A DNA stretch of 64,000 nucleotides, taken from positions 83,386 through 147,385 of the forward strand of contig JBHLON010000001.1 of the NCBI GenBank assembly GCA_048940445.1, read 5' to 3'. A program made the translations under genes and the position numbers. Of this stretch, positions 2,609 to 38,285 are shown piece by piece; the first letter of the stretch is position 1, and every line of letters starts with the position of its first letter. The stretch comes from Promethearchaeota archaeon. Its GTDB lineage: Archaea; Asgardarchaeota; Lokiarchaeia; Sigyniarchaeales; SOKP01. The notes beneath the pieces are model-generated. The model was not told the DNA's origin and did not search any database. It saw nothing but the letters and a program-made list of their open reading frames with translations.

Positions 2609-5572
2609 TTGGGAATAAAGAAGCTTCTATACATGGTTAAAAGTAGAATTAATTTAAAGTTCATTAAACATACTTGGTTAAGCTTAAAAAGAGACAAGAC
2701 CAAAGCGGTGTTTGCTATACTAGGAATTATGATTTCAATTACTCTTTTAACAGCAATAGGTATGGTAAACGATACGATGTCCTATAATTATATGCAGATA
2801 ATAACTAGCAGTACAGGAAATGCCGATATTATGATTTCAAAAAGAGTACAATCAGATATTAGTTATGATCCTTTCTTTGATGAAAATCTTATAGATAATG
2901 ACTTACAAAATATTGAAGGTGTTCAAGAATTCTTTCCTAGAATAATGATGTTTGTGAGAGTATCAGCTAATAACACAAATACAAATGCAACTTTAGAATT
3001 ATATGGTTTAGATTTTTTAAAGGAAGCATATAATGGTCATATGGGAAACTTAGCACTAGTTGATCAATACGGTCTAACAACTGGAAATCTATATTTAGAT
3101 GAACCAAAAGCAGGGGAATGTGTGATCTTATGGAAAGTCGCAGAATTATTAAACGTAACTACAGGCGATTATATTCATCTTGAATACATTCAAAATGAAA
3201 TTGATCTAGAAATTGTAGCAATTTGCAAGCAAGATCTTAAATTTTCGGAATTTGAAAACTCTTTGATACTAGTTAATATTCAGCAAGCACAATCAATTTT
3301 AGATAAACCAAATAGCATTAACTTCATTTATGGAACTTTAAAAAATCCTGAGTCTATATATGACATACGAGATGTAGCAGCCACACAAAGTAAATTAAGG
3401 GTAATTGGAACCAGAATTCAATTACGCTTAGATATCAATGAGTTTTCTGTTGCAATGCCGAAGTTAGAAGAAATTGGAGCGCAAGAATTTATGTTAATCG
3501 CAATGACAGTAATTTTTTGGTTTATCACACTTATTGGAATGTTGATAACTGGTATATTGATTAATTCAATATTATCCACTTCATCTGAAGAAAGACAAAG
3601 AGAATATGGAATTTTGAGAGTTGTTGGAGGGAAAAAGACATTTCCAATTAAAGTGGTGTTATTTGAAGGTGTTTTAATCGGAACAATTGGAGCAATTTTA
3701 GGGATAATAATTGGATTATTACTAACTCCACCAATAGTTAACTTTTTATTTGTTATGACTGGTTTTCGACTTCAAAATGTAGTATATATTATCCAACCTC
3801 AAACTGTACTTCTTGCTTTCGCTATAGGTGCTGGAGGAGCGACGGTTGTTGCATTATTACCCGCTTTTAAAACAGCTAAAATAAATTTAATTAAATCTAT
3901 TACTCCTTTTCGGGCAAAAGAAGAAGGATGGGAAGTTAAGAAGGAAGGGAGTATGAATGTCAAAAGCTTTCTTGTAGGAATCTCAATAGCAACAATTGGT
4001 ATGGTTGTATTTATACTTCTACCAAATATAGTGGTTACTGGTGAATTTATGTTAATTGCTGGTTTATTTATTGGTTTGCTTTGTGCAATTTTAATTGGTC
4101 TAGTATTCGCTTCCGTAGGTATTGTACCGCTAATTCAGCAAATTTTTTTAGGAATAATTAAACCATTTATACGCAAGTATGCTAACATAATTAGTATCTC
4201 ATTAAAACGCAATCGAAGACGAAATACTAGTACAATTGTTATGTTTGCAATTAGTTTTTCATTTATTTTCTTTATCACGAGCGTCACTCAGATGGAATCG
4301 GAAAATACATCTTTAAATTTGCAGTTTCAATATGGTTCAGACCTAGTTATTGTCAATCAAGGATTAGAAGGAGAGCCTAACGCTATAACATTAGAAATGG
4401 CAGAAGAAATAAAGGATCTTCAGGGGGTTGAAGATGTTGCTATTACTTTATTTAACATGTTTGATATTACCTCTGCTATATCACTCATCTACAGCTTTAG
4501 TGAAGGTGGTGGAATGTTTGATGAAGAGTCAATTAATGAAGCATTTCTTAATATCTTTGAGTTCTATAAGGAACAATCAGAAAGAAAGTACAAAGTAGTA
4601 GCTTCAGATATCCCTGAATTTGAACCTCTTGAAGTAGGCTTCATCGGAATTGAAGAAAACTTTATTAATTTGATTGATAAGGACCTAATTATCTGGAATA
4701 GTCCTGGGAGTGGGACAGAATATTCCTATAATCGACTTTTTAGTCATAATGATACTTGCGTCATTTCAGAAGCAATCGCAACAGTTCTTGGCATTAAAGA
4801 AGTAGGAGAAAAAATATTACTTTCGTTCTATGAAAATGAGACTAAGGAAGTCAGAAATCCTTTAATATTTACAGTTTGTGGAATATCTGGTGGAATTCCC
4901 GGTTTCTTTAACTTTAGAAGTTCTGTTTCAATGGCAGAAGGAGGGGGAGTAATGGTTTCTTTGGAGAATTATATTAGATTAATGGGTATAGAAAATCCGG
5001 GAAATCCTGAAATGACTGTAGACAAAATTTTTTTAAGTTTAATCGACAAATCAGAAGAAAGTATTGAACAAACAAAGGAAGATATTCAAGCTTCATACGA
5101 GAATAAAGCCTTTTTCATTGATGATGCTGTTTCGAAAATAAACTTTCTTAGTGATATGTACAAACGACAAAGTACTTTAATGGAAATTATTAATTGGTTT
5201 GCTATTGCAATAGCAATTTTTGGATTAATAAGCTCTATGTATGCTGTTATGCTCGAAAGAAAGTTTGAAATTGGAATTTTAAGATCGCTTGGTATGAAAG
5301 TTAAAAATGTAAGGAATTTATTTTTAATCGAGAGTATGATTTTAATGCTTTCAAGTGGAACTATGGGAACATTAATCGGAACCTTTTGTGCATATATGTT
5401 AGAATCTAATTTGGGATTAATAACAGAGATGCCAATTGTTTTTGATATTCCATTTGACATTTTATTTCGAGTTTACTTTATTTCAATAATTGTTGGCTTT
5501 ATAGGGATGTATATTATACTAATTCGGTTAAGTAGGCAAACAGTAATGGATATATTTAGACAAACCTTCTAA
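2609..5572 (+). CDS. FtsX/MacB-type ABC transporter permease (double FtsX domain)
   Basis: 987 aa. There are two TM blocks separated by large extracytoplasmic domains. Two copies of the FtsX-family loop motif are present: 'ERQREYGILRVVGG' and 'ERKFEIGILRSLGM'. The start is TTG, 4 nt after the SD-like AGGTGA (2599-2604). Confidence 0.85.
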   Translation: MGIKKLLYMVKSRINLKFIKHTWLSLKRDKTKAVFAILGIMISITLLTAIGMVNDTMSYNYMQIITSSTGNADIMISKRVQSDISYDPFFDENLIDNDLQNIEGVQEFFPRIMMFVRVSANNTNTNATLELYGLDFLKEAYNGHMGNLALVDQYGLTTGNLYLDEPKAGECVILWKVAELLNVTTGDYIHLEYIQNEIDLEIVAICKQDLKFSEFENSLILVNIQQAQSILDKPNSINFIYGTLKNPESIYDIRDVAATQSKLRVIGTRIQLRLDINEFSVAMPKLEEIGAQEFMLIAMTVIFWFITLIGMLITGILINSILSTSSEERQREYGILRVVGGKKTFPIKVVLFEGVLIGTIGAILGIIIGLLLTPPIVNFLFVMTGFRLQNVVYIIQPQTVLLAFAIGAGGATVVALLPAFKTAKINLIKSITPFRAKEEGWEVKKEGSMNVKSFLVGISIATIGMVVFILLPNIVVTGEFMLIAGLFIGLLCAILIGLVFASVGIVPLIQQIFLGIIKPFIRKYANIISISLKRNRRRNTSTIVMFAISFSFIFFITSVTQMESENTSLNLQFQYGSDLVIVNQGLEGEPNAITLEMAEEIKDLQGVEDVAITLFNMFDITSAISLIYSFSEGGGMFDEESINEAFLNIFEFYKEQSERKYKVVASDIPEFEPLEVGFIGIEENFINLIDKDLIIWNSPGSGTEYSYNRLFSHNDTCVISEAIATVLGIKEVGEKILLSFYENETKEVRNPLIFTVCGISGGIPGFFNFRSSVSMAEGGGVMVSLENYIRLMGIENPGNPEMTVDKIFLSLIDKSEESIEQTKEDIQASYENKAFFIDDAVSKINFLSDMYKRQSTLMEIINWFAIAIAIFGLISSMYAVMLERKFEIGILRSLGMKVKNVRNLFLIESMILMLSSGTMGTLIGTFCAYMLESNLGLITEMPIVFDIPFDILFRVYFISIIVGFIGMYIILIRLSRQTVMDIFRQTF

Positions 5573-5580
5573 TAGAGCAT

Positions 5581-6165
5581 TTATATACTTCCCAGGAATT
5601 CAATCATTTTTCTCCAAGCTATACCTCTATGAGAAATATGATTCTTTTCTTTAGTTGTTAGTTCAGCAAACGTTTTATTCTGAATTCCATCGGGAATAAA
5701 AATTGGATCGAATCCAAATCCACTAGCACCCTTTATTGACTCCGAAATTTTTCCATTTATCCTTCCCTCAAAAAAGTAGTCTTTACCTAGAGGTTTGAAA
5801 AATAATGCAATAACAGTTAAAAAATGAGCTTCAGTAAGTTCAAAGTTATCAATCAATCGCAAGATTCCTTGATTTCCAATCGTTTTAAAAACATAAGAAG
5901 AATAAACACCAGGGAACCCATTAAGAGGTTTATCAACAAAAAAGCCTGCATCCTCTATAAAACAAGAGCCTTTAACAGATAATTTTACGCTATTTAATTT
6001 AAAAGAGGCATTTTCTTTAATTGAATCTGCTTGAATTTCAGTAGTTTTAACCTTTAACTGTTTTAATACAAAGTTTAACTTCTCACTTTCAAACATTTTA
6101 GAGATTTCATTAAATTTATAATTATTTGTGGTGATAAAATAAATCAGTTTTTCTTCTTTTCCCAT
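5581..6165 (-). CDS. Non-canonical purine NTP pyrophosphatase (HAM1/RdgB/ITPase family)
   Basis: 194 aa. Family motifs 'GFGFDPIF' and 'ISHRG', plus the N-terminal 'FITTNNYKFNE'. Confidence 0.9.
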   Translation of the reverse strand: MGKEEKLIYFITTNNYKFNEISKMFESEKLNFVLKQLKVKTTEIQADSIKENASFKLNSVKLSVKGSCFIEDAGFFVDKPLNGFPGVYSSYVFKTIGNQGILRLIDNFELTEAHFLTVIALFFKPLGKDYFFEGRINGKISESIKGASGFGFDPIFIPDGIQNKTFAELTTKEKNHISHRGIAWRKMIEFLGSI

Positions 6166-6304
6166 AATTATTATAATTTGTTAGAATTTATTTAGGTATA
6201 GGACATATCTCACTTAAAATAAATTAAAATTCCAAAATTTTATTTTGATAAGTTCATTTAGATTTATATCTAGTTAATAGTTGACTGAATATATCTGTGA
6301 TATC

Positions 6305-6763
6305 ATGGCTAGAATGCATAGTAGGAAAAAAGGAAAATCTGGTTCCACAAGACCAGCAAGACTTGATCCCCCCCCATGGATTGAGTTATCAGGAGAAGAA
6401 GTAGAAAATGAAGTAGTGAAGTTAGCAAGAAGAGGATTTTCTCAATCTAGGATTGGTATTATGCTTCGAGATTCATATGGTGTTCCACTGGTAAAAGTCG
6501 TTACAGGCAAATCCATCAGCCAAATACTTGAAGAAAATCAAATTGAATCACCATTACCAGAAGATTTATCCAACTTAGTCAAAAAAGCATTAAGTATTAG
6601 GAAACATTTGGAAACTAATCATAAAGATTTGGAAGCTAAAAAAGGGCTTAATAGAACTGAGTCAAAAGTTTATAGATTGATTAGATATTATAAAAAGAAA
6701 GGATATCTCGAACCAGATTTTAAATATGATCCCGAAAAGATAAGAACAATAGTAATGAGGTAA
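6305..6763 (+). CDS. rps15: 30S ribosomal protein uS15 (S15/S13e)
   Basis: 'MARMHSRKKGKSGSTRP' is the typical archaeal/eukaryotic S15 N-terminus. The track ORF starts at TTG 6281, but the conserved N-terminus begins at ATG 6305. Confidence 0.95.
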   Translation: MARMHSRKKGKSGSTRPARLDPPPWIELSGEEVENEVVKLARRGFSQSRIGIMLRDSYGVPLVKVVTGKSISQILEENQIESPLPEDLSNLVKKALSIRKHLETNHKDLEAKKGLNRTESKVYRLIRYYKKKGYLEPDFKYDPEKIRTIVMR

Positions 6764-6769
6764 AATGTA

Positions 6770-7558
6770 TTGAGTCAGAAGACAAAAAAAAGAAAAGCTA
6801 AAGTCAAAAAAGTAACTTTCAAAGAAAAGAATTGGTATCCTGTAATTGCTCCCAAAAGTTTCAACTTTAGAGAAATTGGTGAGGTAATAGGATTACCAAA
6901 TAACTTAATCGGAAGAACTCTTGAGATATTGCTTTATGATATTACAGATGATTATTCTGATATTAGTCTAAAGTTAAGATTCAAGATATCGGAAGCGAAT
7001 TCTGAAAAAGGTGTTTGTAACAGCATATTTTGGGGACATCAATATACCAATGATTATGTACGTTCACTAATAGGAAGAGGAAGTTCTAAAGTTCAAGTAA
7101 TATTAAATTTGGTCACAAAGGATGAGTGGGGGTTTCGATTAACTGTGATATGTACAACAATAAGGAGAGCACGGAGTTCACAGCAGATTGTTATTAGAAA
7201 AATTATAATGGAAATTTTAAGAGAATTTGCCAAAAATCTTAATCATGAAAAATTCATTAATGGAATTATATATCACGAATTTGAAAATCAAATTAATAGA
7301 GTTGCTAAAACAATATATCCTTTATCCAATTGCTCGATAATTAAAAGTAAAATAATTTCTATACCTGAAGGAGGGGAAGATAAAGAGTACATATCTAAGG
7401 AAGAAGAATTTGATATCGTTGAAGTCGAGGTAAAACGTACTCGAAAAAGCGAAATAAGAAGAACTGAAAGGATTAATGTTGCCAAATTAGCAAAAAACAA
7501 AACAGCACCTGCAGAAACAAGCGAATCTGAAACTGAAAATTCAGAAACAGAGGAATAA
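6770..7558 (+). CDS. rps3ae: 30S ribosomal protein eS1 (S3Ae)
   Basis: 'KNWYPVIAPKSF' is the S3Ae signature region. There is an acidic C-terminal tail. The TTG start sits 8 nt after GAGGT (6757-6761), which overlaps the S15 stop. Confidence 0.95.
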   Translation: MSQKTKKRKAKVKKVTFKEKNWYPVIAPKSFNFREIGEVIGLPNNLIGRTLEILLYDITDDYSDISLKLRFKISEANSEKGVCNSIFWGHQYTNDYVRSLIGRGSSKVQVILNLVTKDEWGFRLTVICTTIRRARSSQQIVIRKIIMEILREFAKNLNHEKFINGIIYHEFENQINRVAKTIYPLSNCSIIKSKIISIPEGGEDKEYISKEEEFDIVEVEVKRTRKSEIRRTERINVAKLAKNKTAPAETSESETENSETEE

Positions 7559-9415: not shown

Positions 9416-10726
9416 TTATTTTGTTTTTTCATTGTAGAAAGGATTTGTTTTTTTTATTAATTTTCCGTTAGAATCTTGATAAAAAAGTGTATTTGATAAC
9501 AAATTTTCATTTACAAGAGTATGAGCTCCTATAATAGTATCTTCTCCAATAATTTTTCCACACATTATACTTGAATTAATTCCAGTTTGAGAATTAGGAC
9601 CAATAATAGCCCCCAATTTTCTTCTACCTGAATCTATTAATTGATTATTAATTTTCATCTTGATATTTTTGTTGTCAAATCTTAAATTCGATATCTTTGT
9701 CCCAGCACCAAGATTTACCTTTTCACAAATTATTGAATCACCCACATAATTGAAATGAGGAATAGATGTATTCGAAAAGATTATTGAGTTTTTAATTTCT
9801 GACATACCAATATGACAAGAATCTCCAATCGATGAATACGGCCTTATAAATGCGTTTGGTCCTATTAAGCAATTAGTTCCAATAAAGCATGGTCCTTGTA
9901 TATATGTCCCTGAGCGTACCTTAGTTCCTTCTCCAATAAATACATTCTCTGAAATAAAGACATTTTTTTCTGCGTTACCTAAATTTTTTGCCTCTTGTGT
10001 GTCTAATACATGCTTATTAGCTTCTAAAAGCTGCCATGGTAATCCAATATCGTTCCAAAATAAATTTTGAAGATTATATCCATAAATTGTGCCTTTCATC
10101 TCATTGAGAAGAATTTTCATAGAATCAGTAAATTCATATTCTCCTCTAACTGATTTTTTCGTTTTTTCAATCGCTTCAAATATATTAGATTTAAATAAAT
10201 ATATTCCAGCATTCGCTAAATTACCGGCATGTAACTCTTGAGAAGGTTTTTCGATAATGCTTTTTACAAATCCTTTTGAATCAAGTGTAATTACTCCATA
10301 ATTTTGGGGGTCTCCCACTTCAACTAAGGAAATTATTCCATCACATTGAATTGATTTAAAATTTTGAATCAATTGACTAAAAAGATTTGAATCTACTAAG
10401 ATATCTCCATACATAAAAAGGAAGTCATCATTCTTCACAAATTCTCTGGCATAACTAGCAGCATGAGCAGTACCTAGATATACTTCTTGGGTCACATAAT
10501 TTATATCGATATTAAATTTATCCCTACTTTTTCCAAAATAATCTTTAATCATTTCTTCTTTATATCCTACAATTAGCAGGAGTTGGTCTATTCCTGAATC
10601 TATTAAACCCAAAATACTATGTTCTAATATAGGTTTTCCAGCTATAGGTATAAGAGGTTTTGGTCTTGTGGCAGTTATTGGTCTAAGTCTCTTTCCCTTT
10701 CCAGCTGCCAAAATAACAGCTTTCAT
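9416..10726 (-). CDS. Bifunctional sugar-1-phosphate nucleotidyltransferase / acetyltransferase (archaeal GlmU-like)
   Basis: The N-terminus 'MKAVILAAGKGKRLRPITATRPKPLIPIAGKPILEH' is an NTP-transferase signature. The C-terminal half consists of hexapeptide (left-handed beta-helix) repeats. Confidence 0.8.
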   Translation of the reverse strand: MKAVILAAGKGKRLRPITATRPKPLIPIAGKPILEHSILGLIDSGIDQLLLIVGYKEEMIKDYFGKSRDKFNIDINYVTQEVYLGTAHAASYAREFVKNDDFLFMYGDILVDSNLFSQLIQNFKSIQCDGIISLVEVGDPQNYGVITLDSKGFVKSIIEKPSQELHAGNLANAGIYLFKSNIFEAIEKTKKSVRGEYEFTDSMKILLNEMKGTIYGYNLQNLFWNDIGLPWQLLEANKHVLDTQEAKNLGNAEKNVFISENVFIGEGTKVRSGTYIQGPCFIGTNCLIGPNAFIRPYSSIGDSCHIGMSEIKNSIIFSNTSIPHFNYVGDSIICEKVNLGAGTKISNLRFDNKNIKMKINNQLIDSGRRKLGAIIGPNSQTGINSSIMCGKIIGEDTIIGAHTLVNENLLSNTLFYQDSNGKLIKKTNPFYNEKTK

Positions 10727-10757: not shown

Positions 10758-11645
10758 TTAATGATCAAATTCATGAATAATTTCAGTTAAATAATTAATT
10801 AAGGAACGATAAGGTTTAAGATCTCCAGAAAATTCTTGTCTTAAAGCTTCTTCTTCAGAAATTTTATCCTTTAATTGAAGAAAAATATCTTTAATTCTAT
10901 TGAAATCTCCTGAAGCTACAAAATCAAGGGAATAACCATTAATATCTTCAAATAAAATTAACTTTTTATTTCCATTCTCCGCTAAATCATAAAATTGAAT
11001 TTCTTTAATATTCATATTTGCTCTAATTTGAGTATTCATTGCTATGGTAGCCAATCGAGCTGATAAATTTGAACTAAATAAATCAATATTTTCGTGAGTC
11101 ACTTCACGACGAAGATCATTTAAAAGAGTAGTATCATATAACTGAGAGATAATGGGCAATCCTTGAGCAGAGATACCGCAATAAATTATTTTATTTTCAA
11201 TTTGAGCATAAGAATTATCTAGCTTTTCATCTTCAAGAGGAAAACGGTACTTCTCCCATAAGTATGCTGTAATTAATTTTATAATCTTTGAAAACTCTGA
11301 TTTTTTTGAATACTCATTATATTTATTTGGATTATTGTAATTTGCGATTACCTTTTCATAAAACTCATTTAACATGTTGTCTGCAGCCTCAGAATTAGAT
11401 AAAAAATCACCAGTTATACAGTAAAACAGATTTTGGAAAGCATCATTGATTTCATGTTTAATAATCATACGTTCCCTTCCTTCCTTCCCCTCAAAAAAGA
11501 TATTTTTTAGACGCCAGACATTTTTGGGATTGATACTTCGAATTAATTTCTCTACAAAAAGTACAATTTCAAAAACTGGATATTTATATTCATTCGAAAT
11601 GTAGAGAATTTCATCATCTAAAATAATAGCAAATCCAGTAATCAT
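10758..11645 (-). CDS. Two-domain longin-like + roadblock/LC7-like protein
   Basis: 295 aa. The N-terminus 'MITGFAIILDDEILYISNE...LFYCITGDFLSNSEAADNMLNEFYEKV' follows the longin-domain pattern. The C-terminal half 'IIYCGISAQGLPIISQ...LILFEDINGYSLDFVASGDF' looks roadblock/MglB-like. This is a by-eye call. Confidence 0.5.
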   Translation of the reverse strand: MITGFAIILDDEILYISNEYKYPVFEIVLFVEKLIRSINPKNVWRLKNIFFEGKEGRERMIIKHEINDAFQNLFYCITGDFLSNSEAADNMLNEFYEKVIANYNNPNKYNEYSKKSEFSKIIKLITAYLWEKYRFPLEDEKLDNSYAQIENKIIYCGISAQGLPIISQLYDTTLLNDLRREVTHENIDLFSSNLSARLATIAMNTQIRANMNIKEIQFYDLAENGNKKLILFEDINGYSLDFVASGDFNRIKDIFLQLKDKISEEEALRQEFSGDLKPYRSLINYLTEIIHEFDH

Positions 11646-14941: not shown

Positions 14942-15748
14942 TTAATTTAATAGTGCTCTAATTTTACTAACAATCTTATGTAAATAAAATTCAGCTATCC
15001 CAAATTTAGTTTTAGAATCAAATATCAAAATAATTAGATAATTTTCATTAAAGTATTCTGAAAAGATAAGCTCGTTGTCTTTGGAAGTATAAAACATTTT
15101 TAAAATAGAATTATTATAGATTTTAATCCTGAAATCTATTTCTTTCAATGCCTTTTTTAATGATCTTTTGTCTTTCGTAGTAGAATAAAGTATTTTTCCT
15201 CCATTAGTCAAAAAGATAATTTCACTAATTTCATCACTCAATTGAATAGTTTTTATATATTTGATCACTTTATCTTCTTTTTCTAAATTGTATTCCTTGC
15301 TTGAAATTTCTTTAATAACGTGTTTTATATCATCATCTAATTGGTTATCGTAAATGTATTCTAGCTCTGTTCTAATCTGATTTTTTTTAACATATTTCAT
15401 GAATTTTATATTTATACGGTTTATGATTCTCTTAAGTATAATCGAATTCTCGTTAATATCACATAATAGAGCATAAAAAAGTGTAGCTTTCTCAAAAATA
15501 ACAAGCTTTATTCCTCCACCCATTTCCAAATTTTTTATCTTGTTTCCAATTAATTCTTTTGTAAAAGACATAAGAGCTGTAAAATAAGAAGATATTAATT
15601 GTTCTTGTTCTAATCTAAAAACATCTGTAAAATTAATTCCATAAATGCAAATTCCTGACCTATTAAAGATAAGTAAATTATGAATACTATAAATTTCCGA
15701 TGATCTTTTAATTTTTGAGATAAATGGAGAGTTCTCCTGTATTGTCAT
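14942..15748 (-). CDS. Tandem longin (sybindin/TRAPP Bet5-like) + roadblock-like protein
   Basis: 268 aa. 'IHNLLIFNRSGICIYGINF...LISSYFTALMSFTKEL...IKLVIFEKATLFYALLCD' resembles the TRAPPC1/Bet5 and sigma-adaptin longin-fold N-termini. A second alpha/beta module is 'IIFLTNGGKILYST...YLIILIFDSKTKFG'. Confidence 0.5.
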   Translation of the reverse strand: MTIQENSPFISKIKRSSEIYSIHNLLIFNRSGICIYGINFTDVFRLEQEQLISSYFTALMSFTKELIGNKIKNLEMGGGIKLVIFEKATLFYALLCDINENSIILKRIINRINIKFMKYVKKNQIRTELEYIYDNQLDDDIKHVIKEISSKEYNLEKEDKVIKYIKTIQLSDEISEIIFLTNGGKILYSTTKDKRSLKKALKEIDFRIKIYNNSILKMFYTSKDNELIFSEYFNENYLIILIFDSKTKFGIAEFYLHKIVSKIRALLN

Positions 15749-18757: not shown

Positions 18758-19492
18758 TTATTTCTTTATAACAATCGCAATTGGAACCGATGCTTCACGC
18801 CATTGTGCTATCTTACCTGAATATTCTAAGTCTAATTTTACACGTCCATGGTCTCCGAGGATAATCATTAAAGAGTTAGGTCTCAATTGCTTATAGTTGC
18901 TTAAAATCCATTTATCTGTGCGAAGTATCAACTTCTCAATCAAATCTTCAGGTGTTCTTTGCTTCAAAGCCTGTTGTTGTTTATGGAGATTTTCAAAATC
19001 TAGATAGTGCATTAAAGAAATATCAAAATTATTAATAGTTTTGGCACTCTCAATCCAAGTCGCCATATCTGTTTCTTTAGGAACTGAAAGTGTTCCAGCA
19101 GCATATCGTTCCACATCTTTTTTTCTACCAATTAAACATGACTTTTTTCCTTTTTCATTAAGATATCGTAATAGATGAAAATGGTTGGGTTCCATAGTAA
19201 AACCCCCATAAAATATTTGGTGAAGTACTCCTAATGTATATGGATTTTTAGTAGATAACAACAACATCATTTCAGATTGGCGTATCATAAATTCGGGTTT
19301 ATGATAAGTAATTTCAAAAAGACCAAAATTATCAATAATGTTAATACTAATTCTTTCAACACCGTGATAAGCCTCAATCATAGAATCTACAGGTTCTGGA
19401 ATGATATCAAGGGGGGGATCAATATCAAGTAATTTTAAAAAGGTAGCCGGTAATTGGTTTAAATAGCATTTAATTGTTTGAAGTTCACTCAT
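18758..19492 (-). CDS. Hypothetical protein, possibly alkaline-phosphatase-superfamily-like
   Basis: 244 aa. It has a C-terminal 'MIILGDHGR' (an xDHG motif of the AP/nucleotide pyrophosphatase superfamily). The N-terminal catalytic motifs are not clear. Confidence 0.3.
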   Translation of the reverse strand: MSELQTIKCYLNQLPATFLKLLDIDPPLDIIPEPVDSMIEAYHGVERISINIIDNFGLFEITYHKPEFMIRQSEMMLLLSTKNPYTLGVLHQIFYGGFTMEPNHFHLLRYLNEKGKKSCLIGRKKDVERYAAGTLSVPKETDMATWIESAKTINNFDISLMHYLDFENLHKQQQALKQRTPEDLIEKLILRTDKWILSNYKQLRPNSLMIILGDHGRVKLDLEYSGKIAQWREASVPIAIVIKK

Positions 19493-23747: not shown

Positions 23748-24641
23748 ATGAAAAAAAAAGAATTAAGTTTGCTAATTTTTATTGTTACTACGTTCCTACT
23801 GAGTTTTAATATGTTGATTCCTAACATTAATTGTAATCCTTTACCAGCACCAGAAGATCATTTTGTGGGAGGAATTGTCTCTAATAAAAGTATTTCTCTA
23901 AATCTACTTAATGCTGACGTACTTTTTAATATTGACTCTACAAATTTTTCCAATAATATTGGTATTGATTTCTCTGGAAATTATACTATTTTTAATCCTA
24001 ATGAAAAAACTAATATAACCTTATATGCCCCTTTCTCTTTAGAGACAGATGTTGTAAGTTCAAATTGTGTAGTTCAAGTAAATGAAACAATAGTTCCATT
24101 TAAAATAATTAACATATATGACCTTGATTATAATGTTTATTCATATATAGAGGATTATTTATCATCTTCAAGTTCTATTTGGGGTATAGCTTTAATTATA
24201 TGCAATTTAACAATCTCAGAGAATAGTACTAATACTATTAAATATCAATTTAGTGGTATTATAGAGAGAAGATCAAATGACTTTTCTATCAATTATGATT
24301 TAGGGACAGCAAGAGCTTGGGAAGGAGATTTAAATGAATTTGTTGAATTTAAAGTGATAGGAAAGATTCCTGACAGCTATAGAGAATATACAAATGGCAC
24401 TTCTGAAGATCGCTGTGAAATAACTGACATTGATAATGGTAAAGTATATACATGGGAATGGAATAATGAAAAAACAAATATATTACAAGTAGGAATAATT
24501 TATAGGGAAAGACTATTCAGTTTTGAATTTATAATCTTAATAATTATTCTCGTAGGTATTTCAGCTATAATAGCTATCCCAGTAACCATAATATTGATAA
24601 GAAGAAGGAGAAGAACTCAAAAGGAAATATATACTCACTAA
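23748..24641 (+). CDS. Secreted, sequon-rich protein with a C-terminal TM anchor
   Basis: Signal-like N-terminus 'LSLLIFIVTTFLLSFNMLIPNINC'. Many N-x-S/T sequons. C-terminal TM 'FIILIIILVGISAIIAIPVTIILI' followed by 'RRRRR'. SD-like GAGGGTGA lies upstream. Confidence 0.6.
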   Translation: MKKKELSLLIFIVTTFLLSFNMLIPNINCNPLPAPEDHFVGGIVSNKSISLNLLNADVLFNIDSTNFSNNIGIDFSGNYTIFNPNEKTNITLYAPFSLETDVVSSNCVVQVNETIVPFKIINIYDLDYNVYSYIEDYLSSSSSIWGIALIICNLTISENSTNTIKYQFSGIIERRSNDFSINYDLGTARAWEGDLNEFVEFKVIGKIPDSYREYTNGTSEDRCEITDIDNGKVYTWEWNNEKTNILQVGIIYRERLFSFEFIILIIILVGISAIIAIPVTIILIRRRRRTQKEIYTH

Positions 24642-27018: not shown

Positions 27019-27651
27019 ATGAGTATAACGTTCGATTTCTTTTTACCGTTTGGATTTCTGTATTGGAGTTGGTTAACATGGATTCTTTTTATCATTTTCG
27101 TCCTTACATACTTATTCCTCATTTTAGGAAGTAGGGATTTAAAAAGGGACAATTTTGCATCTACAAAATTCTTGTTTGTCATTGGGATCTTACTTTTAGT
27201 TTGGTATATTCTAGTACAACTTTTTATTCCTTCAATGTCCGTTACTTCACCGACTCCAATGGAATTTATCATTTACATTATCTATACTTTGTTTCTAGGA
27301 TCCGGGATAATCTATCAAGTTTTACATATTATATTAGGAATTGGATTTATTAAAGTTGGAAGCAGTAATAGAGACCATGGTGGAACTGTCGCATTGGTTG
27401 GTGGTATTTTATATCTTATAGCATGGATACTTATTATGTTAAGTGACATATTTTTTTCGTTTATTCCAGTATATCTTTCTTCACTACTATTTAGCGTTAT
27501 TGGTTGGCTTATAATTATCACAAGCCTTGCAGCGGCAATTTTAATCTTTATCTTCAGTATCTTTACTAAGAGACCTTTGTTTATAGTATTTGGTGCTTTA
27601 TTCTTAGCGATTTACTCTTTCCAATTCTTATATTTAACTGGAATTATATGA
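27019..27651 (+). CDS. Polytopic membrane protein, unknown family
   Basis: 210 aa, almost entirely hydrophobic helices, with no recognisable motif. Confidence 0.5.
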   Translation: MSITFDFFLPFGFLYWSWLTWILFIIFVLTYLFLILGSRDLKRDNFASTKFLFVIGILLLVWYILVQLFIPSMSVTSPTPMEFIIYIIYTLFLGSGIIYQVLHIILGIGFIKVGSSNRDHGGTVALVGGILYLIAWILIMLSDIFFSFIPVYLSSLLFSVIGWLIIITSLAAAILIFIFSIFTKRPLFIVFGALFLAIYSFQFLYLTGII

Positions 27652-28929: not shown

Positions 28930-29772
28930 ATGGCTAAACTTCAAGTTCGATGCCCTTCTTGTTCAAAGAGTAATTTCATTGAGGTTTCAGATGAAGAAGT
29001 TAAAAAAGCGTCAAAAGGTCTTTTTGCTGTAAATGTTGCAGAAGGGATAGTATGTAACCATTCTTTTGTGGCTTATGTAGATAAAAATTTTACTGTAAGA
29101 GATGCTTTCATAGCCGATTTTCAAGTTGAACTTCCGAGTACTAATACTGAAAAAGTTGTTGAAGTAAAAAAAGATTTTTCTGATTTATTTGACATTGATT
29201 TGATTAAATTAAATATTACCGCCTCTTTATTAGGATATGTTCTAAGAGCTATGATATTTAAAAAGAAAATTGTACTAATTTCTAATCAACAATATATCTT
29301 TAATCAAGTTTCAAACTTTTTTCATTACATCACCGAAAATTCTTTTGGGATAGATCTTATCTTAATTGATGAGAATCAATATAACAAGGACTCATTTGGC
29401 GATCATTTCGCTTTTAAAGGTCGAGAAATTGTTACTGATTTTAACGGTAAGCTCGAATCCACAAAGATAAATGTTGAGAAAACTATAATTCAAAAATTCT
29501 TAAATGAATATGATCCTATGACAAGCTTAATCATACTAAAGAATGAAATTCAAAAAGCATTTCAGCTGTCTAAAACAATAGTAGAGATAATTAACAATTT
29601 AAAGAAAAATGAAAAAATCTATTCTAAAAAATTAATAATTGAATTAGAAAAAAGACATAATCTAAAAATAGTAATACCCTATTTAGAGTTTCTTTATGAA
29701 ATTGTAGAAAATTATTTTGACGTAAAAATCCCAAAATCGTCAGGTATTTCCAATTTCCTCGGGACCTTATAA
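28930..29772 (+). CDS. Zinc-ribbon protein with a C-terminal alpha/beta domain (weak DENN-core-like segment)
   Basis: 280 aa. 'RCPSCSKS...VCNHS' forms a CxxC...CxH site. The central 'LLGYVLRAMIFKKKIVLISNQQYIFNQVSNFFHYI' resembles the DENN-core 'aLLxErrIvlxSsxxxxLxxvxxal' pattern. No family is confirmed. Confidence 0.35.
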   Translation: MAKLQVRCPSCSKSNFIEVSDEEVKKASKGLFAVNVAEGIVCNHSFVAYVDKNFTVRDAFIADFQVELPSTNTEKVVEVKKDFSDLFDIDLIKLNITASLLGYVLRAMIFKKKIVLISNQQYIFNQVSNFFHYITENSFGIDLILIDENQYNKDSFGDHFAFKGREIVTDFNGKLESTKINVEKTIIQKFLNEYDPMTSLIILKNEIQKAFQLSKTIVEIINNLKKNEKIYSKKLIIELEKRHNLKIVIPYLEFLYEIVENYFDVKIPKSSGISNFLGTL

Positions 29773-31060: not shown

Positions 31061-31924
31061 TTAATCTTTTAAATCAAATATTATTTCAACTGAACTGACA
31101 ATCCCCAACTTACGGGCAAATCTTCTAATATATTGAATCCTATGTTTTTTAATTACATCTGAGACAATCAAAGTTGGAATAAAAGGAAGGATCATAAAAA
31201 AAGGGAACGGAATGAAAATTGCCAATAAAATGGAAAATAAACTTGTAAAACTAGCCGTTTCTACTAAAAAGATAGTAATAAATTCAAAATAGGAGAATAT
31301 TACTGATACACCAGCGTAACCTTTTAGAAATTGCCCATACCATCTCCCTATAGAACGAACCTCAGGTGGATTAATTGTTTTATCTAATTTATTTCTATTA
31401 GAATAGATTATACCAGAATCACTTAAAAACCATGTAGTAGAGAAAAGTATTGTTGCAAGAAAAAAAGTTAGTACTAATAATACTACAAAGGTAGTAGCAT
31501 AATCTGCTTGAGTAGTCGGTATGCTCCCTCTTGAGAAGGTGACAATTTCAGGAGTAAGTAAAAATAATGAGAAATTAATAGCCATTAATGCAGAAAATAA
31601 ACCAGAAGAAAAATATTTAAATTTGGGAAATTCTGGTCTATTGAAAAGTCCATATTCCATTTTGGTTTTAAAGATTTTTTTATGGATATAAAGAAAAAAC
31701 GGTGAAAATCCATATCCACCAACAAATAAACCAATTAAAGAAGATACGGGTAATATGATTATAGAAAGTAATCCTGTTTCTAATCCCATATCAGAAATTG
31801 GAATTAATTTAGTTAAATCATCGGTTCTTCCAATAATTAAAGAAAAAGTAATAGAGATCCCAATCCAAAATAAGCAATAAAATAAAAAGAACAATAAAGC
31901 TCGTTTATATTTCCCAATTTTCAT
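31061..31924 (-). CDS. Polytopic membrane protein, unknown family, translationally coupled to the upstream small GTPase
   Basis: 287 aa with multiple TM helices. Its ATG (31922-31924) is 1 nt from the GTPase stop codon (31926-31928). Confidence 0.6.
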   Translation of the reverse strand: MKIGKYKRALLFFLFYCLFWIGISITFSLIIGRTDDLTKLIPISDMGLETGLLSIIILPVSSLIGLFVGGYGFSPFFLYIHKKIFKTKMEYGLFNRPEFPKFKYFSSGLFSALMAINFSLFLLTPEIVTFSRGSIPTTQADYATTFVVLLVLTFFLATILFSTTWFLSDSGIIYSNRNKLDKTINPPEVRSIGRWYGQFLKGYAGVSVIFSYFEFITIFLVETASFTSLFSILLAIFIPFPFFMILPFIPTLIVSDVIKKHRIQYIRRFARKLGIVSSVEIIFDLKD

Positions 31925-31925
31925 A

Positions 31926-32444
31926 TTATTTTACCATAATTCTACTAATTATATCAAATACTATATCTATATTTTCTCCAGTTTTGGAAGAACACTCTAA
32001 ATATTCTAAGAAATTATTTTCATTGGTAAAATTTTTAGCTTCTTCCTGGGAGATTGTTCTATTCTCCATAAGATCTAATTTACCACCAACTAAGACTTTA
32101 GGAACTTCTTGATTATGAGTTTGATTTGAATTATCAAACACCGTTAGCCAATCTGTTAAATTTTTAAAAGTATTATATCGGGTAAGATCATACATAAAGA
32201 TAGCCCCATGTGTGCCTACTAGAGTGCTAGATAATAAAAATCTGAACTTATCTTCACCTGCAAAATCCCATATATGAAGAGCAATCTTATTACCATTCAA
32301 ATGTAGTTTCTTTACATAAAAATCCATGCCTAATGTTAATTTGTATGACTCTTTAAAAACACCAGAAAGATATCGATGCGTTAGAGTAGTCTTTCCAACA
32401 GCAGAATCCCCTAAAATGCAGACCTTATACTGATTATCTTCCAT
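31926..32444 (-). CDS. Rab/Ras-like small GTPase (Asgard-type), no C-terminal lipidation motif
   Basis: G1 'GDSAVGKT'; switch I 'TLGMDF'; G3 'WDFAGED'; G4 'GGKLD'; G5 'CSSKTG'. 172 aa, ending '...RIMVK'. Confidence 0.85.
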   Translation of the reverse strand: MEDNQYKVCILGDSAVGKTTLTHRYLSGVFKESYKLTLGMDFYVKKLHLNGNKIALHIWDFAGEDKFRFLLSSTLVGTHGAIFMYDLTRYNTFKNLTDWLTVFDNSNQTHNQEVPKVLVGGKLDLMENRTISQEEAKNFTNENNFLEYLECSSKTGENIDIVFDIISRIMVK

Positions 32445-35321: not shown

Positions 35322-35948
35322 TTAATCTCTCGATTTTAATTTATTGAGTTCTTCTTCTAATTCCTTAATCTTACCATCGGGTTCTACAGAGGGTAATGCT
35401 CCCCCTACTTCAGCTCCAATTTCTGCATCTATTTCACCTAAAACATCCTTAACATCAGTATCAGTAACTGCAGTATCAATCATTAAATCATTTATTCCAT
35501 CAGTAGTTATTTCTTCCGTAACATTAAAGTCTTCGATATCTACTCCAATTTGAGTCATAAGTTCGGTAATTTGTGGAATTGATAATGAATTTTTTAGCGC
35601 ACCAAGACTCATTGCTATTCCTCTCATAATTTCAGCAACATCTTTTACAGCACTAGCTTGTTCCAACTTAAAGACCATACCTTCAAGGTTTGTCCTGAAT
35701 AGGTCTATTGCTCTTGCTTGTTTCTTAACTTGTAAGTAGTTACGAGCGTGAAATTCCGAACCCTGCATATCACCAGCTTTTCGAAGATTGACAGCTTTGT
35801 CCCTTGCAAGTTTTGCTGACATCTCCATTTTTTTTGTTTGCCTCATTAATCGTTTGTTAAAAACTTTTAATTTTACGGTCGCAGATCGTACAGTATCCTT
35901 TTTACGACCTCCGGATAACCAACCCGAAAGATCTTTCAAAAATCCCAT
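35322..35948 (-). CDS. ESCRT-III (Snf7/CHMP family; Vps2/24/46-like)
   Basis: 208 aa. The N-terminal half is a basic helical hairpin ('KLKVFNKRLMRQTKKMEMSAKLARDKAVNLRKAG...'). The C-terminal half is acidic. The terminal 'IKELEEELNKLKSR' has MIM1-like Leu spacing. The gene is divergent from vps4. Confidence 0.85.
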   Translation of the reverse strand: MGFLKDLSGWLSGGRKKDTVRSATVKLKVFNKRLMRQTKKMEMSAKLARDKAVNLRKAGDMQGSEFHARNYLQVKKQARAIDLFRTNLEGMVFKLEQASAVKDVAEIMRGIAMSLGALKNSLSIPQITELMTQIGVDIEDFNVTEEITTDGINDLMIDTAVTDTDVKDVLGEIDAEIGAEVGGALPSVEPDGKIKELEEELNKLKSRD

Positions 35949-36163
35949 TTTTCATCAACTTTTAGTTAATTTATATAATATAAAAAAATTCGAGATTATA
36001 TAATTTTTTGTAGACCAATAATTAAGATGATAAATCTCGAGGAGACATCATACCAAAAAGAAAATTTGTATTAACTTTTTTTAATGTTTAATAAAAGTGA
36101 AGATTGGTATTAGATTAATTTAAATAACAATTGAAATATTATAAAATAAAATAAGCTAAAAAT

Positions 36164-36180
36164 AAGAGGTTTTAATTATC
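36164..36180 (+). promoter_or_regulatory. Shine-Dalgarno (AAGAGGT) plus in-frame near-cognate start candidates ATT (36175) / ATC (36178) for vps4
   Basis: GAGGT at 36166-36170 immediately follows the in-frame stop TAA (36163-36165). ATT and ATC lie 4 and 7 nt downstream, in the Vps4 frame. Confidence 0.45.
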
Positions 36181-37395
36181 TCATCAGTAGACTCAAAACT
36201 ATATCAATATGCAGTCCAAGAAGCTCAAGCTGCTGTAAATTTAGATGAAAAAGGTCATTTACACCAAGCAATGAATAAGTACTTTAGAGCAGCAGAAATA
36301 CTTATTCAATTTATTAAGTATAATAAAAATCCAATTATGATCAGAAAGTGTAAAGATCAAATTGAACAATACATGACTAGGGCTCAAGTTCTTAAAGAGC
36401 ATCTAAGTGGTCCAAGAGCTAGGAGGCCACATCCAAAGGCAACTCCTAGTGAACCACATGAAGGAGAACCAAATGCAGAGGAAGGAAGTCTATCAGCTGA
36501 GGAGCAGGAACTCATGGACTCTATTTCAGACACAATCTTAACAGAATCCCCTAATGTTAAGTGGAACGAAATCGCAGGTCTAAGCGATTGTAAGCAAGCA
36601 GTAAGAGAAGCTATTGTATTACCAATCATGAAACCGGATTTATTTACAGGTGCAAGAAAACCATGGTCGGGAATATTGTTATTTGGACCTCCTGGATGCG
36701 GAAAAACATTATTAGCAAAAGCGGCTGCCACGGAATGTAAAGCGACATTTTTTAGTGTCTCATCAGCAGATTTATTAAGCAAATGGTTAGGTGAAAGTGA
36801 AAAATTAATCTCATCGCTTTTTAAGTTAGCCCGAACAAGAGCACCAAGCCTAATTTTTATGGACGAAATTGATTCCGTAACCACGACTAGAGGTAGTGGA
36901 CATGAAGGAGGAGGAGAGAGAAGAGTCAAAACTCAGTTATTACAAGAAATTCAAGGCGTTAAATCAACTCATGATAAGCCAATGCTTGTGCTGGGAGCTA
37001 CAAACCGACCTTGGGATATTGATATAGCAATGTTAAGCAGATTTGAAAAGAAAGTATACGTGCCACTTCCAGATCAACCAGCAAGAGCAGGTATTTTTAA
37101 GATTCATACTTCAGGAGTTAATTCTGCCTTAACAGAAGAAGATTATATTGAATTAGCAGTTCGTACTGAGTCTTATTCTGGTAGAGACATATCAAATATT
37201 TGCCGTGAAGTCATTATGATTCCTGTAAGAGAATTAGATATGGGTGGGTTACTGGAAGATCCGGAAAAAGAAGTTGTTGTGAGAGATATAAACCTAAAAG
37301 ATTTTTTAAAGACTATAAAGAAAGTAAAGCCAATGATGACTAAGGCTGAATTGAAGAAATATCAAGTATGGGCAGAGGAATTCGGAGAATTTTAG
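36178..37395 (+). CDS. vps4: Vps4 AAA+ ATPase (MIT domain + AAA + Vps4 C-terminal helix)
   Basis: Walker A 'GPPGCGKT', Walker B 'LIFMDEID', 'ATNRPWDID' and 'LSRFEKKVYVPLP'. The MIT helices 'LYQYAVQEAQAAVNLDEKG / HLHQAMNKYFRAAEILIQFIKY / IMIRKCKDQIEQYMTRAQVLKEHL' start upstream of the first ATG (36271, the conservative start). The proposed start is ATC 36178 or ATT 36175. Confidence 0.9.
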   Translation: MSSVDSKLYQYAVQEAQAAVNLDEKGHLHQAMNKYFRAAEILIQFIKYNKNPIMIRKCKDQIEQYMTRAQVLKEHLSGPRARRPHPKATPSEPHEGEPNAEEGSLSAEEQELMDSISDTILTESPNVKWNEIAGLSDCKQAVREAIVLPIMKPDLFTGARKPWSGILLFGPPGCGKTLLAKAAATECKATFFSVSSADLLSKWLGESEKLISSLFKLARTRAPSLIFMDEIDSVTTTRGSGHEGGGERRVKTQLLQEIQGVKSTHDKPMLVLGATNRPWDIDIAMLSRFEKKVYVPLPDQPARAGIFKIHTSGVNSALTEEDYIELAVRTESYSGRDISNICREVIMIPVRELDMGGLLEDPEKEVVVRDINLKDFLKTIKKVKPMMTKAELKKYQVWAEEFGEF

Positions 37396-37396
37396 G

Positions 37397-38281
37397 ATGG
37401 AGAAACAAAGAGAAAAACCAAAAGAAATTCCAAAAAAAGTTGAAGAAAAAGCAACAATAGATCTAGATGAATTAAGAAAGGAGTTAGCACGATTAAAAGA
37501 ACTGAAGAAACAAAGAGAGTCAGAGAAGCCTCCGGAAGACATTGTTAAGGAAGAAGAAGTTATTGAAAAACCAATTTCAGAAAACATTGGAACTCGGTTA
37601 GATAGAATTGAGGATTTCTTGACAAGTAAACTTGGTGATGTAGATTTAGAAGCATATAAGCAACATTCTGCTCAAATAGAAAAAGAACTTAAAAGCATAG
37701 AACAAGAATTAGTAGGTGAAGAAGGTGTTATAGCTAAAGAGATCTCTACCTACGAATTACTACTCAATGATTATCCTTGGCTTGAAGAAAAAAGATATGT
37801 ATTCATGTATTCTATCCCTAATAAAAAAAATAATCTTAAAGATTTCGAATCATGGAAGAATGAATGGTCAAAGGTACTTTTTGATTATGCAAGATATGCA
37901 ATTCTTCACATTTTATATTTAAGAAAATTAGAATCGGAGAAGCCATTCTCTAAATTTGAAAACAGAAATACAGCTTTAGAAATAATTGCGCAGGAATTAG
38001 TCGATAGAAACCAGGCAGAATGGCTTACAAAAAGCAAAGAGAAATTAAGAATATATTGGAAAACTCTTGACAATTGGGCAGAGGAAATTTATGAATGGGC
38101 CATGGAAATATCACCTCTAGAACCCATTTTGATATTTGAAATAAGAGAATCTAATAGAGCTTTCAGTACATTACCAAAAGAGGATTTGCTTGAAATTTTC
38201 AAAAGACTTGAGAAAAATGAACGTGGAAGGATTATTAAGTCAGAGGATGGCCAAATATCTTTCAAAATAAAGGTAGAATAG
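37397..38281 (+). CDS. vps25: ESCRT-II Vps25-like protein with a ~110-aa charged N-terminal extension
   Basis: 'NQAEWLTKSKEKLRIYWKTLDNWAEEIYEWA' compares with human VPS25 'GNLEWLDKSKSSFLIMWRRPEEWGKLIYQWV' (recalled from memory). The C-terminus '...RIIKSEDGQISFKIK' compares with '...AEIITVSDGRGVKFF'. The ATG is 1 nt after the vps4 stop. Confidence 0.8.
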   Translation: MEKQREKPKEIPKKVEEKATIDLDELRKELARLKELKKQRESEKPPEDIVKEEEVIEKPISENIGTRLDRIEDFLTSKLGDVDLEAYKQHSAQIEKELKSIEQELVGEEGVIAKEISTYELLLNDYPWLEEKRYVFMYSIPNKKNNLKDFESWKNEWSKVLFDYARYAILHILYLRKLESEKPFSKFENRNTALEIIAQELVDRNQAEWLTKSKEKLRIYWKTLDNWAEEIYEWAMEISPLEPILIFEIRESNRAFSTLPKEDLLEIFKRLEKNERGRIIKSEDGQISFKIKVE

Positions 38282-38285
38282 ATTT

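Follow-up and report, generated by a model that had tools for sequence, protein, structure and literature searches.

A conserved two-domain longin-superfamily protein of Promethearchaeota as a candidate dimeric platform for a small GTPase

The DNA analysed here, called the window throughout, is a stretch of 64,000 nucleotides (G+C content ~29%) from contig JBHLON010000001.1 of a Promethearchaeota archaeon. A gene on its minus strand, at positions 10758..11645, encodes a protein of 295 residues, which we refer to as the target. Predicted topology confirmed its N-terminal domain as a longin, and the second domain is modelled as an α/β domain of the longin/roadblock superfamily, which is more likely to be another longin than a roadblock. 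Compared over its whole chain, the predicted fold is matched best by subunits of longin-based guanine nucleotide exchange factors (GEFs) of Rab GTPases. We propose, with a probability of about 0.5, that the target is a dimeric longin platform that would regulate a small GTPase. The features of the target are as follows, with the evidence for each in brackets.

10758..11645, minus strand: open reading frame (ORF) and stop codon of the 295-residue, two-domain longin-superfamily protein (ORF list, homologues, AlphaFold2 model)
11229..11645, minus strand: domain 1, residues 1-139, in canonical longin order (DSSP of the AlphaFold2 model, VAMP7 alignment, profile match to a neighbouring protein)
11349..11429, minus strand: motif LFYCITGDFLSNSEAADNMLNEFYEKV, residues 73-99, forming β5 and α2 of domain 1 (model, VAMP7 alignment, conservation)
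11193..11228, minus strand: residues 140-151, a variable linker joining the two domains (pLDDT and conservation both reach their minimum here)
10770..11192, minus strand: domain 2, residues 152-292, in longin-type order and holding the family-wide invariant residues (DSSP, conservation)
11145..11183, minus strand: β1-β2 hairpin of domain 2, Y155-C-G157-I-S159-A-Q-G162-L-P164-I-I-S167 (conservation)
10818..10832, minus strand: F272-x-G274-D-L276 loop, connecting the two final helices of domain 2 (conservation)

Predicted structure of the target

The structure of the target was predicted by AlphaFold2 with a family alignment (A1), and the best model reached a predicted local distance difference test score (pLDDT) of 90.2 and a predicted template modelling score (pTM) of 0.88. 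In this model both domains follow the order ββ-α-βββ-α-α. According to DSSP, domain 1 is built from β2-9, β12-16, α19-38, β44-53, β56-66, β72-79, α86-102, a short α106-113 and α116-139, and domain 2 from β152-160, β163-169, a short α173-177, α184-208, β212-220, β226-235, β238-245, α248-263 and α277-292. Longins are defined by the order ββαβββαα and roadblocks by αββαβββ(α) (PMC8833172, PMC10933270), and domain 2 appears to have no N-terminal helix of its own. As the model places three helices between the last strand (β5) of domain 1 and the first (β1) of domain 2, helix 116-139 was weighed as a possible roadblock-type N-terminal helix of domain 2. We prefer the assignment of two longins because each domain then holds exactly the canonical number of elements, because the variable linker comes only after this helix, and because its counterpart in the alignment with the VAMP7 longin domain is α3. 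The linker has a pLDDT of 69 for the block 141-150, and the mean frequency of its top residue is 0.45 in A1 and 0.28 in an alignment of divergent sequences (A3).

Comparison with the VAMP7 longin domain gave a single BLASTP pair at E 0.37, which is not significant. The alignment nevertheless stays in register from β3 through α3 ('FYCITGDF…LNEFYEKV…SEFSKII' in the target against 'YLCITDDD…LNEIKKRF…SEFSSVL' in VAMP7), and C76 and G79 within the LFYCITGDFLSNSEAADNMLNEFYEKV motif are invariant across the close family. Domain 1 also matched the longin domain of a neighbouring 268-residue protein, described below, in a weak in-register profile alignment (E 0.009). An internal duplication relating domain 1 to domain 2 was considered and not accepted: hhalign gave E 0.19, which is not significant, with β3-β5 in register ('CITGDF' and 'VASGDF').

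The sequence-only reading that preceded this analysis had described a fusion of an N-terminal longin, supported by a comparison with VAMP7, and a C-terminal roadblock. Its longin is borne out by the predicted ββ-α-βββ-α-α topology over residues 1-139, and its VAMP7 comparison, for which it had quoted the LFYCITGDFLSNSEAADNMLNEFYEKV motif, holds for the register over β3-β5, α2 and α3 without reaching significance. The C-terminal domain does belong to the longin/roadblock superfamily, as the fusion required, but its elements come in longin order and it shows no detectable similarity to the roadblock protein DYNLRB1. The target is kept as a two-domain member of the superfamily whose second domain reads as a longin.

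Fold comparison with known structures

A Foldseek search of the PDB with the model returned the following leading matches.

7q3e_B, CPLANE: E 9e-5, probability ~1.0
7q3d_B, CPLANE: E 4e-4, probability ~1.0
8zwc_A, BLOC-3: E 1.4e-3
9rs6_A, Mon1-Ccz1: E 3.1e-3
9rs9_B and 9rs8_B, Fuzzy-Inturned: E 7.5e-3

Ranks 1-3 and 5-7 are occupied by chains of multi-longin Rab GEFs. Lower ranks hold single-domain longin or roadblock chains with E values of 0.06-0.3 and probabilities of 0.33-0.85, among them the Lokiarchaeal longin 8yqg_A (E 0.058, probability 0.85), the AP-2 chain 6owt_M, LC7, sedlin and the longin of DENND1A. The likeness to eukaryotic GTPase-regulator platforms that had been claimed from the sequence is upheld to the extent that the best whole-chain matches are subunits of longin-based Rab GEFs, including Mon1-Ccz1, which had been named.

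A narrow family of conserved hypothetical proteins

The target ORF, on the minus strand and 295 residues long, starts with ATG, and its coordinates and reading frame had been given correctly before (ORF list). Among 5.8 billion clustered proteins, a search found 326 homologue clusters at E <= 1e-3; the best 120 listed are nearly all 292-298 residues long and 53-92% identical along their full length, and nearly every named copy is labelled 'hypothetical protein'. The family is narrow, because only 70 clusters were recovered when 1.84 billion representatives at 50% identity were searched exhaustively with a profile. A scan of species-representative genomes, in which 'QGLPIIS[QK]L' and '[ED]FxGDL[KR]P' served as diagnostic search patterns, found a relative encoded in 111 species-level genomes, from which 80 loci with full-length matches were retained. 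The two-domain architecture is conserved along the whole chain in no fewer than 80 of these 111 genomes. Nearly all of the 80 loci are labelled Promethearchaeota or Promethearchaeia, Promethearchaeota being the former Lokiarchaeota in the current NCBI taxonomy and one phylum of the Asgard kingdom; for the distant clades the only lineage labels recovered were 'Promethearchaeota' and 'Hodarchaeota'. There is no doubt that the gene exists and is subject to selection. Its close relatives share 44 invariant positions. One locus (L019, DATKTW010000149.1) carries the label 'Candidatus Nanopelagicaceae bacterium' and contains the complete Asgard synteny block with a target orthologue of 65% identity; this contig is very likely mis-binned.

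Sequence searches did not place this family within a known one. The target alone gave only chance-level matches in Pfam, NCBIfam and PDB sequence searches, and so did the profiles of A1 (33 sequences) and A3 (40 divergent sequences) in the same databases. Each domain searched separately had no significant match in Pfam, NCBIfam or the PDB, domain 2 having no PDB sequence match, and no significant Pfam match emerged when the 40 family members were scanned one by one. No profile match of the target came near the gathering threshold for PF13774 Longin, PF04099 Sybindin, PF01217 Clat_adaptor_s or PF19036 Fuz_longin_1; the sole longin-type profile match among the 40 divergent members was one to Clat_adaptor_s (E 0.05), and none of the 40 matched Robl_LC7 or MAPKK1_Int in Pfam. 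The G-[LI]-P-I-x-S hairpin of domain 2 resembles roadblock proteins by eye only, and BLASTP produced no alignment between the target and DYNLRB1. PDB sequence searches likewise detected no relationship between the target and any solved Asgard longin or roadblock. Our literature searches found no paper describing the family and no report of Mon1-Ccz1-like or tri-longin-like proteins in archaea.

Conserved residues cluster in domain 2

The strongest positions of the divergent 40-sequence alignment fall in domain 2. G246, F272 and G274 are conserved in 100% of the sequences, P164 and S195 in 97%, I201 and L276 in 93%, Y155, G157, A209 and I216 in 90%, and G162 in 88%. Two motifs stand out from these positions: the β1-β2 hairpin, which takes the family-wide form Y-x-G-[ILV]-S-x-x-G-[LIV]-P (with the variant S-[LIV]-P in one clade), and the loop near the end of the domain, with the family-wide form F-x-G-[DN]-L. 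The stretch LSAQLATI forms the conserved first helix of the domain. A family-wide conserved arginine is missing, the best candidate being R208 (68% R, 80% R+K).

Some relatives are longer than the target. Long copies of the most distant clade carry acidic, low-complexity, disordered C-terminal tails of 50-220 residues (P0157, P0158, P0159, P0164, P0169, P0172 and P0165), several of which end in DLTLNF, DLKLNF or FNF; judged by its sequence, this hydrophobic tail end looks like a short linear interaction motif. The extensions were also considered as a third longin domain, a possibility that was discarded: they are acidic disordered or helical tails and have no Pfam match.

Tandem paralogues in distant relatives

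In the most distant clade, that of the acidic tails, two diverged family members were found close together on the same strand in 4/4 loci examined.

L087, 4055-4975 and 5001-6050, same strand: 306 and 349 residues, 25-bp gap, 49% identity
L084, 8001-9485 and 9739-10725, same strand: 494 and 328 residues, 25% identity
L090, 4745-6352 and 6757-7752, same strand: 535 and 331 residues
L089, 1348-2826 and 5761-6744, same strand: 492 and 327 residues

Heterodimeric complexes are known for both longins and roadblocks, as in TRAPPC1/C4 and LAMTOR2/3 (PMC10933270) and in Mon1-Ccz1 (PMC8833172). The tandem diverged pairs suggest, by analogy with these complexes, that the paired copies form heterodimers. 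It is from these pairs in distant clades that we infer dimerisation for the family, because paired paralogues are what heterodimeric longin/roadblock platforms would be expected to show.

Genomic neighbourhood

Comparison of the 80 loci revealed a conserved block around the target, in the order [268-residue protein] → rubrerythrin → ← radical SAM ← Sir2 → [target] → glmU … S3Ae, S15. The features of the window relevant to this neighbourhood are listed below.

14942..15748, minus strand: 268-residue longin and roadblock protein, a candidate partner of the target (AlphaFold2 model, Foldseek, Pfam, synteny)
9416..10726, minus strand: archaeal GlmU, bifunctional sugar-1-phosphate nucleotidylyltransferase/acetyltransferase (TIGR03992, PDB 2ggo)
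31926-32444, minus strand: Ras-family GTPase (PF00071, 1.8e-44)
35322-39014: ESCRT cluster of Snf7 (ESCRT-III), Vps4, ESCRT-II (Vps25-like) and EAP30 (Vps22/36-like), followed by NIP7-like and RsmB-like genes

The AlphaFold2 model of the 268-residue protein, which is of moderate quality (pLDDT 73, pTM 0.50), shows a longin followed by a domain in the roadblock order α-ββ-α-βββ-α, and its top Foldseek matches are Mon1-Ccz1 chains at ~1e-6. Weak Pfam signals were obtained within this family for Sybindin, a TRAPP longin (26/33 members), Fuz_longin_1 (PF19036; 13/33, best 2e-6) and the roadblock family MAPKK1_Int (5/33). The longin and roadblock architecture once ascribed to the target is in fact better exemplified by this neighbour. 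The two families resemble each other as two-domain longin-superfamily proteins of similar size that occur in the same genomes and fall into the same class of fold matches; they differ in sequence family, in the roadblock order of the second domain of the neighbour, and in the weak Pfam support that the neighbour has and the target does not. A homology between the two was considered and rejected, as hhalign gave E 0.055 for the whole profiles and 0.009 for domain 1 against domain 1, neither of which is significant. The gene of the 268-residue protein lies ~4.1 kb upstream of the target, in the same orientation, in 59/80 loci; when only loci with 5 kb or more of upstream sequence are counted, the figure is 59/63. 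We regard this pairing as block synteny and not as an operon, because the three unrelated genes that separate the two (rubrerythrin, radical SAM and Sir2, of which two are encoded on the other strand) keep their positions just as consistently; moreover, insertions of 2-5.6 kb separate the target from Sir2 in several loci. In one locus (L001, 4406-4735) all that is left of the 268-residue gene in its syntenic place is an open frame for the C-terminal part, either because it is a pseudogene or through an assembly frameshift.

On the other side, the glmU gene starts 31 bp downstream of the target on the same strand. Its identity is given by TIGR03992 (498 bits against a cutoff of 292) and by PDB 2ggo (ST0452, 3.7e-87), which rule out the eIF2Bγ/ε-like or GMPPB-like protein that the LbH_EIF2B and GMPPB_C Pfam matches might indicate. 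It is adjacent (at +919) in 57/80 loci. In the clade with ~30% identity (P0129; locus L085) glmU at 5825-7090 overlaps the family gene by 4 bp, and in the P0140 clade (L091) it lies at 3476-4792 behind one opposite-strand gene and is followed by S3Ae-S15, as in the window. The target and glmU are possibly co-transcribed. As an operon partner, however, glmU is weakened by that insertion, by the S3Ae-S15 genes that follow and by the loss of adjacency in ~20 close loci with sufficient downstream sequence. The glmU neighbourhood therefore looks like deep, probably ancestral, synteny that carries no hint of function. In two other clades, a PAP2-family lipid phosphatase is encoded directly downstream of the family gene (L086, 2574-3371; L092, 1672-2523); together with glmU it hints at a glycan or lipid-carrier theme, which may be a coincidence.

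The Ras-family GTPase and the ESCRT genes that the sequence-only reading had pointed out, at 20 kb and 25 kb from the target, are indeed present in the window. We give no weight to the functional hint that had been drawn from this proximity, because the genes in between are unrelated housekeeping genes; besides, none of the 80 loci encodes a small GTPase within ±10 kb of the target orthologue (0/80, Ras or Arf-like query). In the Asgard archaea, GTPases and longin/roadblock genes are generally not organised in operons (PMC10933270). At 31061-31924 on the minus strand, 1 bp after the GTPase gene and on the same strand, lies the gene of a multi-pass membrane protein of 287 residues that has no Pfam match, and the two look like an operon.

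Elsewhere in the window, the segment 18173-23423 contains, among unannotated ORFs, a NikR-like regulator, a LarC-type nickel insertion protein and an AIR-carboxylase-like (LarB-like) protein; the NikR/LarC part of this nickel gene set is conserved in L001 as well. Four further ORFs of 210-297 residues have no Pfam match at E <= 0.01, namely 18758-19492 (-), 23748-24641 (+), 27019-27651 (+) and 28930-29772 (+).

Discussion

The target would thus be a soluble 295-residue Asgard protein in which domain 1 is a canonical longin and domain 2 is most parsimoniously a second one, whose β1-β2 hairpin makes a roadblock-like turn of the form G-[LIV]-P. It would most probably pair with another copy of itself or with a paralogue by way of the edges of its β-sheets, as other longin/roadblock proteins do, to give a flat dimeric platform onto which a small GTPase of the Ras superfamily could dock. 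The platform would then control the nucleotide state or the location of the GTPase, acting as a GEF-like regulator or as a scaffold, and the domain 2 hairpin (Y155..G162-L-P164) together with the F272-x-G274-D-L276 loop is the candidate functional surface. We infer GTPase regulation from the fold and the analogy of architecture only. The earlier suggestion of an ancestral GTPase regulator accordingly survives as the best reading of the fold, to which the genome adds no GTPase link. Asgard genomes encode many small GTPases to which no regulators have been assigned (PMC10933270).

Several observations weigh against this proposal. Whole-chain template modelling scores (TM-scores) to the matched structures are low, 0.2-0.33, with a root-mean-square deviation of ~20 Å; the signal therefore lies in two consecutive longin-like domains and not in a common global or quaternary arrangement. 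Multi-longin chains would be the top matches of any tandem longin protein, and the length of the alignment alone favours multi-domain targets. Tandem PAS proteins also appear among the Foldseek matches, at lower probability. Longin domains also serve in roles unrelated to GTPases, in SNAREs, in the σ and μ subunits of adaptors and in SRX. The alignment given to AlphaFold2 was shallow (33 sequences; effective number, Neff, ~2.3), and three of the five models were confident (pLDDT 90, 86 and 85), the other two being poor (66 and 42). The sequence comparisons tie the target to no family of longins, roadblocks or GEFs. Furthermore, the own clade of the target has a single family copy within ±10 kb, leaving no paralogous dimer partner at the locus, and no GTPase is linked to it. 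This last absence does not count against a role in GTPase regulation, because Asgard GTPases are generally not operon-linked (PMC10933270).

The main rival, albeit an unlikely one, is a longin-fold adaptor or scaffold that has no GTPase client, comparable with σ/μ-adaptin, ζ-COP, the longins of SNAREs or SRX and perhaps engaged in a membrane or glycan-precursor process. The AP-2 chain and sedlin among the single-domain fold matches speak for it, as do the unlinked GTPases, the glmU gene next to the target in most close loci, overlapping it in the P0129 clade and nearby in the P0140 clade, and the PAP2 phosphatase of two other clades. The best-scoring fold matches, on the other hand, are GEF subunits rather than adaptors, the 295 residues contain no membrane-binding, SNARE or coat-related element, and the glmU neighbourhood, missing in ~20 close loci and split by an opposite-strand gene in L091, reads as old synteny rather than as a functional operon. 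More doubtful is a heterodimer of the target with the syntenic 268-residue protein, in the manner of a Mon1-Ccz1-like proto-tri-longin Rab GEF that has no third longin domain. Both proteins find their best PDB matches in tri-longin Rab GEF subunits, Fuz_longin_1 is matched by part of the 268-residue family, the two genes keep their distance and strand in most loci, and the eukaryotic tri-longin GEFs are heterodimers with a longin LD1 and a roadblock-type LD2 (PMC8833172). Nonetheless, the genes do not form one operon, the two families have no detectable homology, unlike the paralogous pairs of tri-longin subunits, and Sybindin is matched by more members of the 268-residue family than Fuz_longin_1, so the tri-longin signal is unspecific; the model of the neighbour is also only moderate. 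A comparably slight chance attaches to the di-longin family as a prokaryotic precursor state of the tri-longin Rab GEFs, that is, a small dimeric exchange factor of two domains per subunit for an Asgard Rab/Ras-like GTPase, from before the gain of the third longin domain; the paired paralogues of sister clades, together with the syntenic 268-residue protein, leave room for this reading.

A longin GTPase-activating protein (GAP) of the FLCN/NPRL2/SMCR8 kind, with the G-L-P turn of domain 2 as its 'GP motif' and with an arginine finger, is improbable. In GAP longins, and in some longins from Asgard archaea, the GP motif has been placed in the β1-β2 loop or where β2 begins (PMC12290439), and G162-L-P164, the most conserved motif of the family, occupies this exact structural position in domain 2. 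The motif is, however, G-[LIV]-P or, in one clade, S-[LIV]-P rather than GP, and it is found in the second domain and not in the N-terminal one. Roadblock proteins have a similar G-[IL]-P hairpin, 'EGIPIKS' in DYNLRB1, and this too counts against a GAP. The target also has no DENN or NPRL-type C-terminal domain, and an FLCN-like arginine-finger GAP is rejected, there being no conserved arginine. The least probable of the readings is a tandem PAS/GAF-like sensor of small molecules outside the longin/roadblock superfamily. Chains of a LOV-PAS histidine kinase, DosP, a phytochrome and dCache did occur in the Foldseek list with E values of 1e-3 to 0.3, and PAS and longin folds have in common a five-stranded antiparallel sheet of order 2-1-5-4-3. 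The probabilities of the PAS-type matches are 0.1-0.4, however, against 0.85-1.0 for longin proteins, and in each domain of the target β2 and β3 are separated by a single long helix and β5 is followed by two helices, which is the longin pattern; a PAS domain would instead have several short helices and none past the last strand. Furthermore, an output or transmitter domain is absent from the target, and none of the 40 members gave a PAS or GAF signal in Pfam.

Among known systems, the proposed GTPase platform comes closest to the subunits of the tri-longin Rab GEFs (Mon1, Ccz1, Fuzzy, Inturned, HPS1 and HPS4). Like these, the target carries several longin-fold domains in one chain and begins with a canonical longin (ββαβββαα), and they are its best whole-chain fold matches in the PDB; their paralogous heterodimers find a parallel in the paired diverged paralogues among its relatives. 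Tri-longin proteins are defined by a longin LD1, a roadblock-type LD2 and a lamtor-type LD3 completed by a helix αX (PMC8833172). The target differs in having two domains in 295 residues of its AlphaFold2 model instead of three, its longer relatives adding only acidic or helical tails. Its second domain has longin rather than roadblock order, its family gives no PF19036 signal, and the matched tri-longin chains have 387-568 residues, with low global TM-scores. What is new here is thus an unannotated family whose modelled architecture appears closest to that of the tri-longin Rab GEFs yet falls short of their three domains. The longin GAP subunits FLCN, NPRL2, SMCR8 and C9orf72 and the Asgard proteins of FLCN/SMCR8 type resemble the target in that the β1-β2 hairpin of a longin domain bears a conserved turn of Gly and Pro, from which the target departs by its G-x-P form, its position in the second domain, and the missing arginine finger and DENN/C-terminal domain. 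FLCN-like and NPRL2-like longins have already been described in Asgard archaea (PMC12290439; Liu et al.). The known Asgard longin and roadblock proteins (Klinger 2016; Liu 2021 asCOGs; Tran 2024; the structure 8yqg and the roadblocks 9jue and 7f8m) belong to the same superfamily and the same organisms as the target, although the Lokiarchaeote 'Roadblock-Longin protein' 8yqg has a roadblock-longin order where the target has longin-longin. The superfamily comprises 130 asCOGs in Asgard archaea (Liu et al.), Loki is predicted to have ~38 roadblock domains and ~41 longin domains, and Asgard roadblock structures have been solved (Tran et al., PMC10933270). Multidomain longin/roadblock proteins and their fusions with GTPases are expanded in Lokiarchaeia (PMC10933270; Liu et al.).

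The Rab-, Arf- and Rag-like GTPases of Asgard archaea number in the dozens, longin and roadblock proteins are numerous as well, and the pairing of regulators with clients cannot be read from their operons (PMC10933270). The target offers a practical candidate for testing whether GEF/GAP activity of longin platforms predates eukaryotes, because it is small, soluble, locally single-copy and highly conserved, occurs in more than 100 species-level genomes, and has invariant motifs and sister clades with paired copies. Should it prove to be a generic longin scaffold, it would be one more entry in the long Asgard catalogue. If the resemblance to tri-longin GEFs is true, the family would show the origin of the Mon1-Ccz1-type Rab GEFs.

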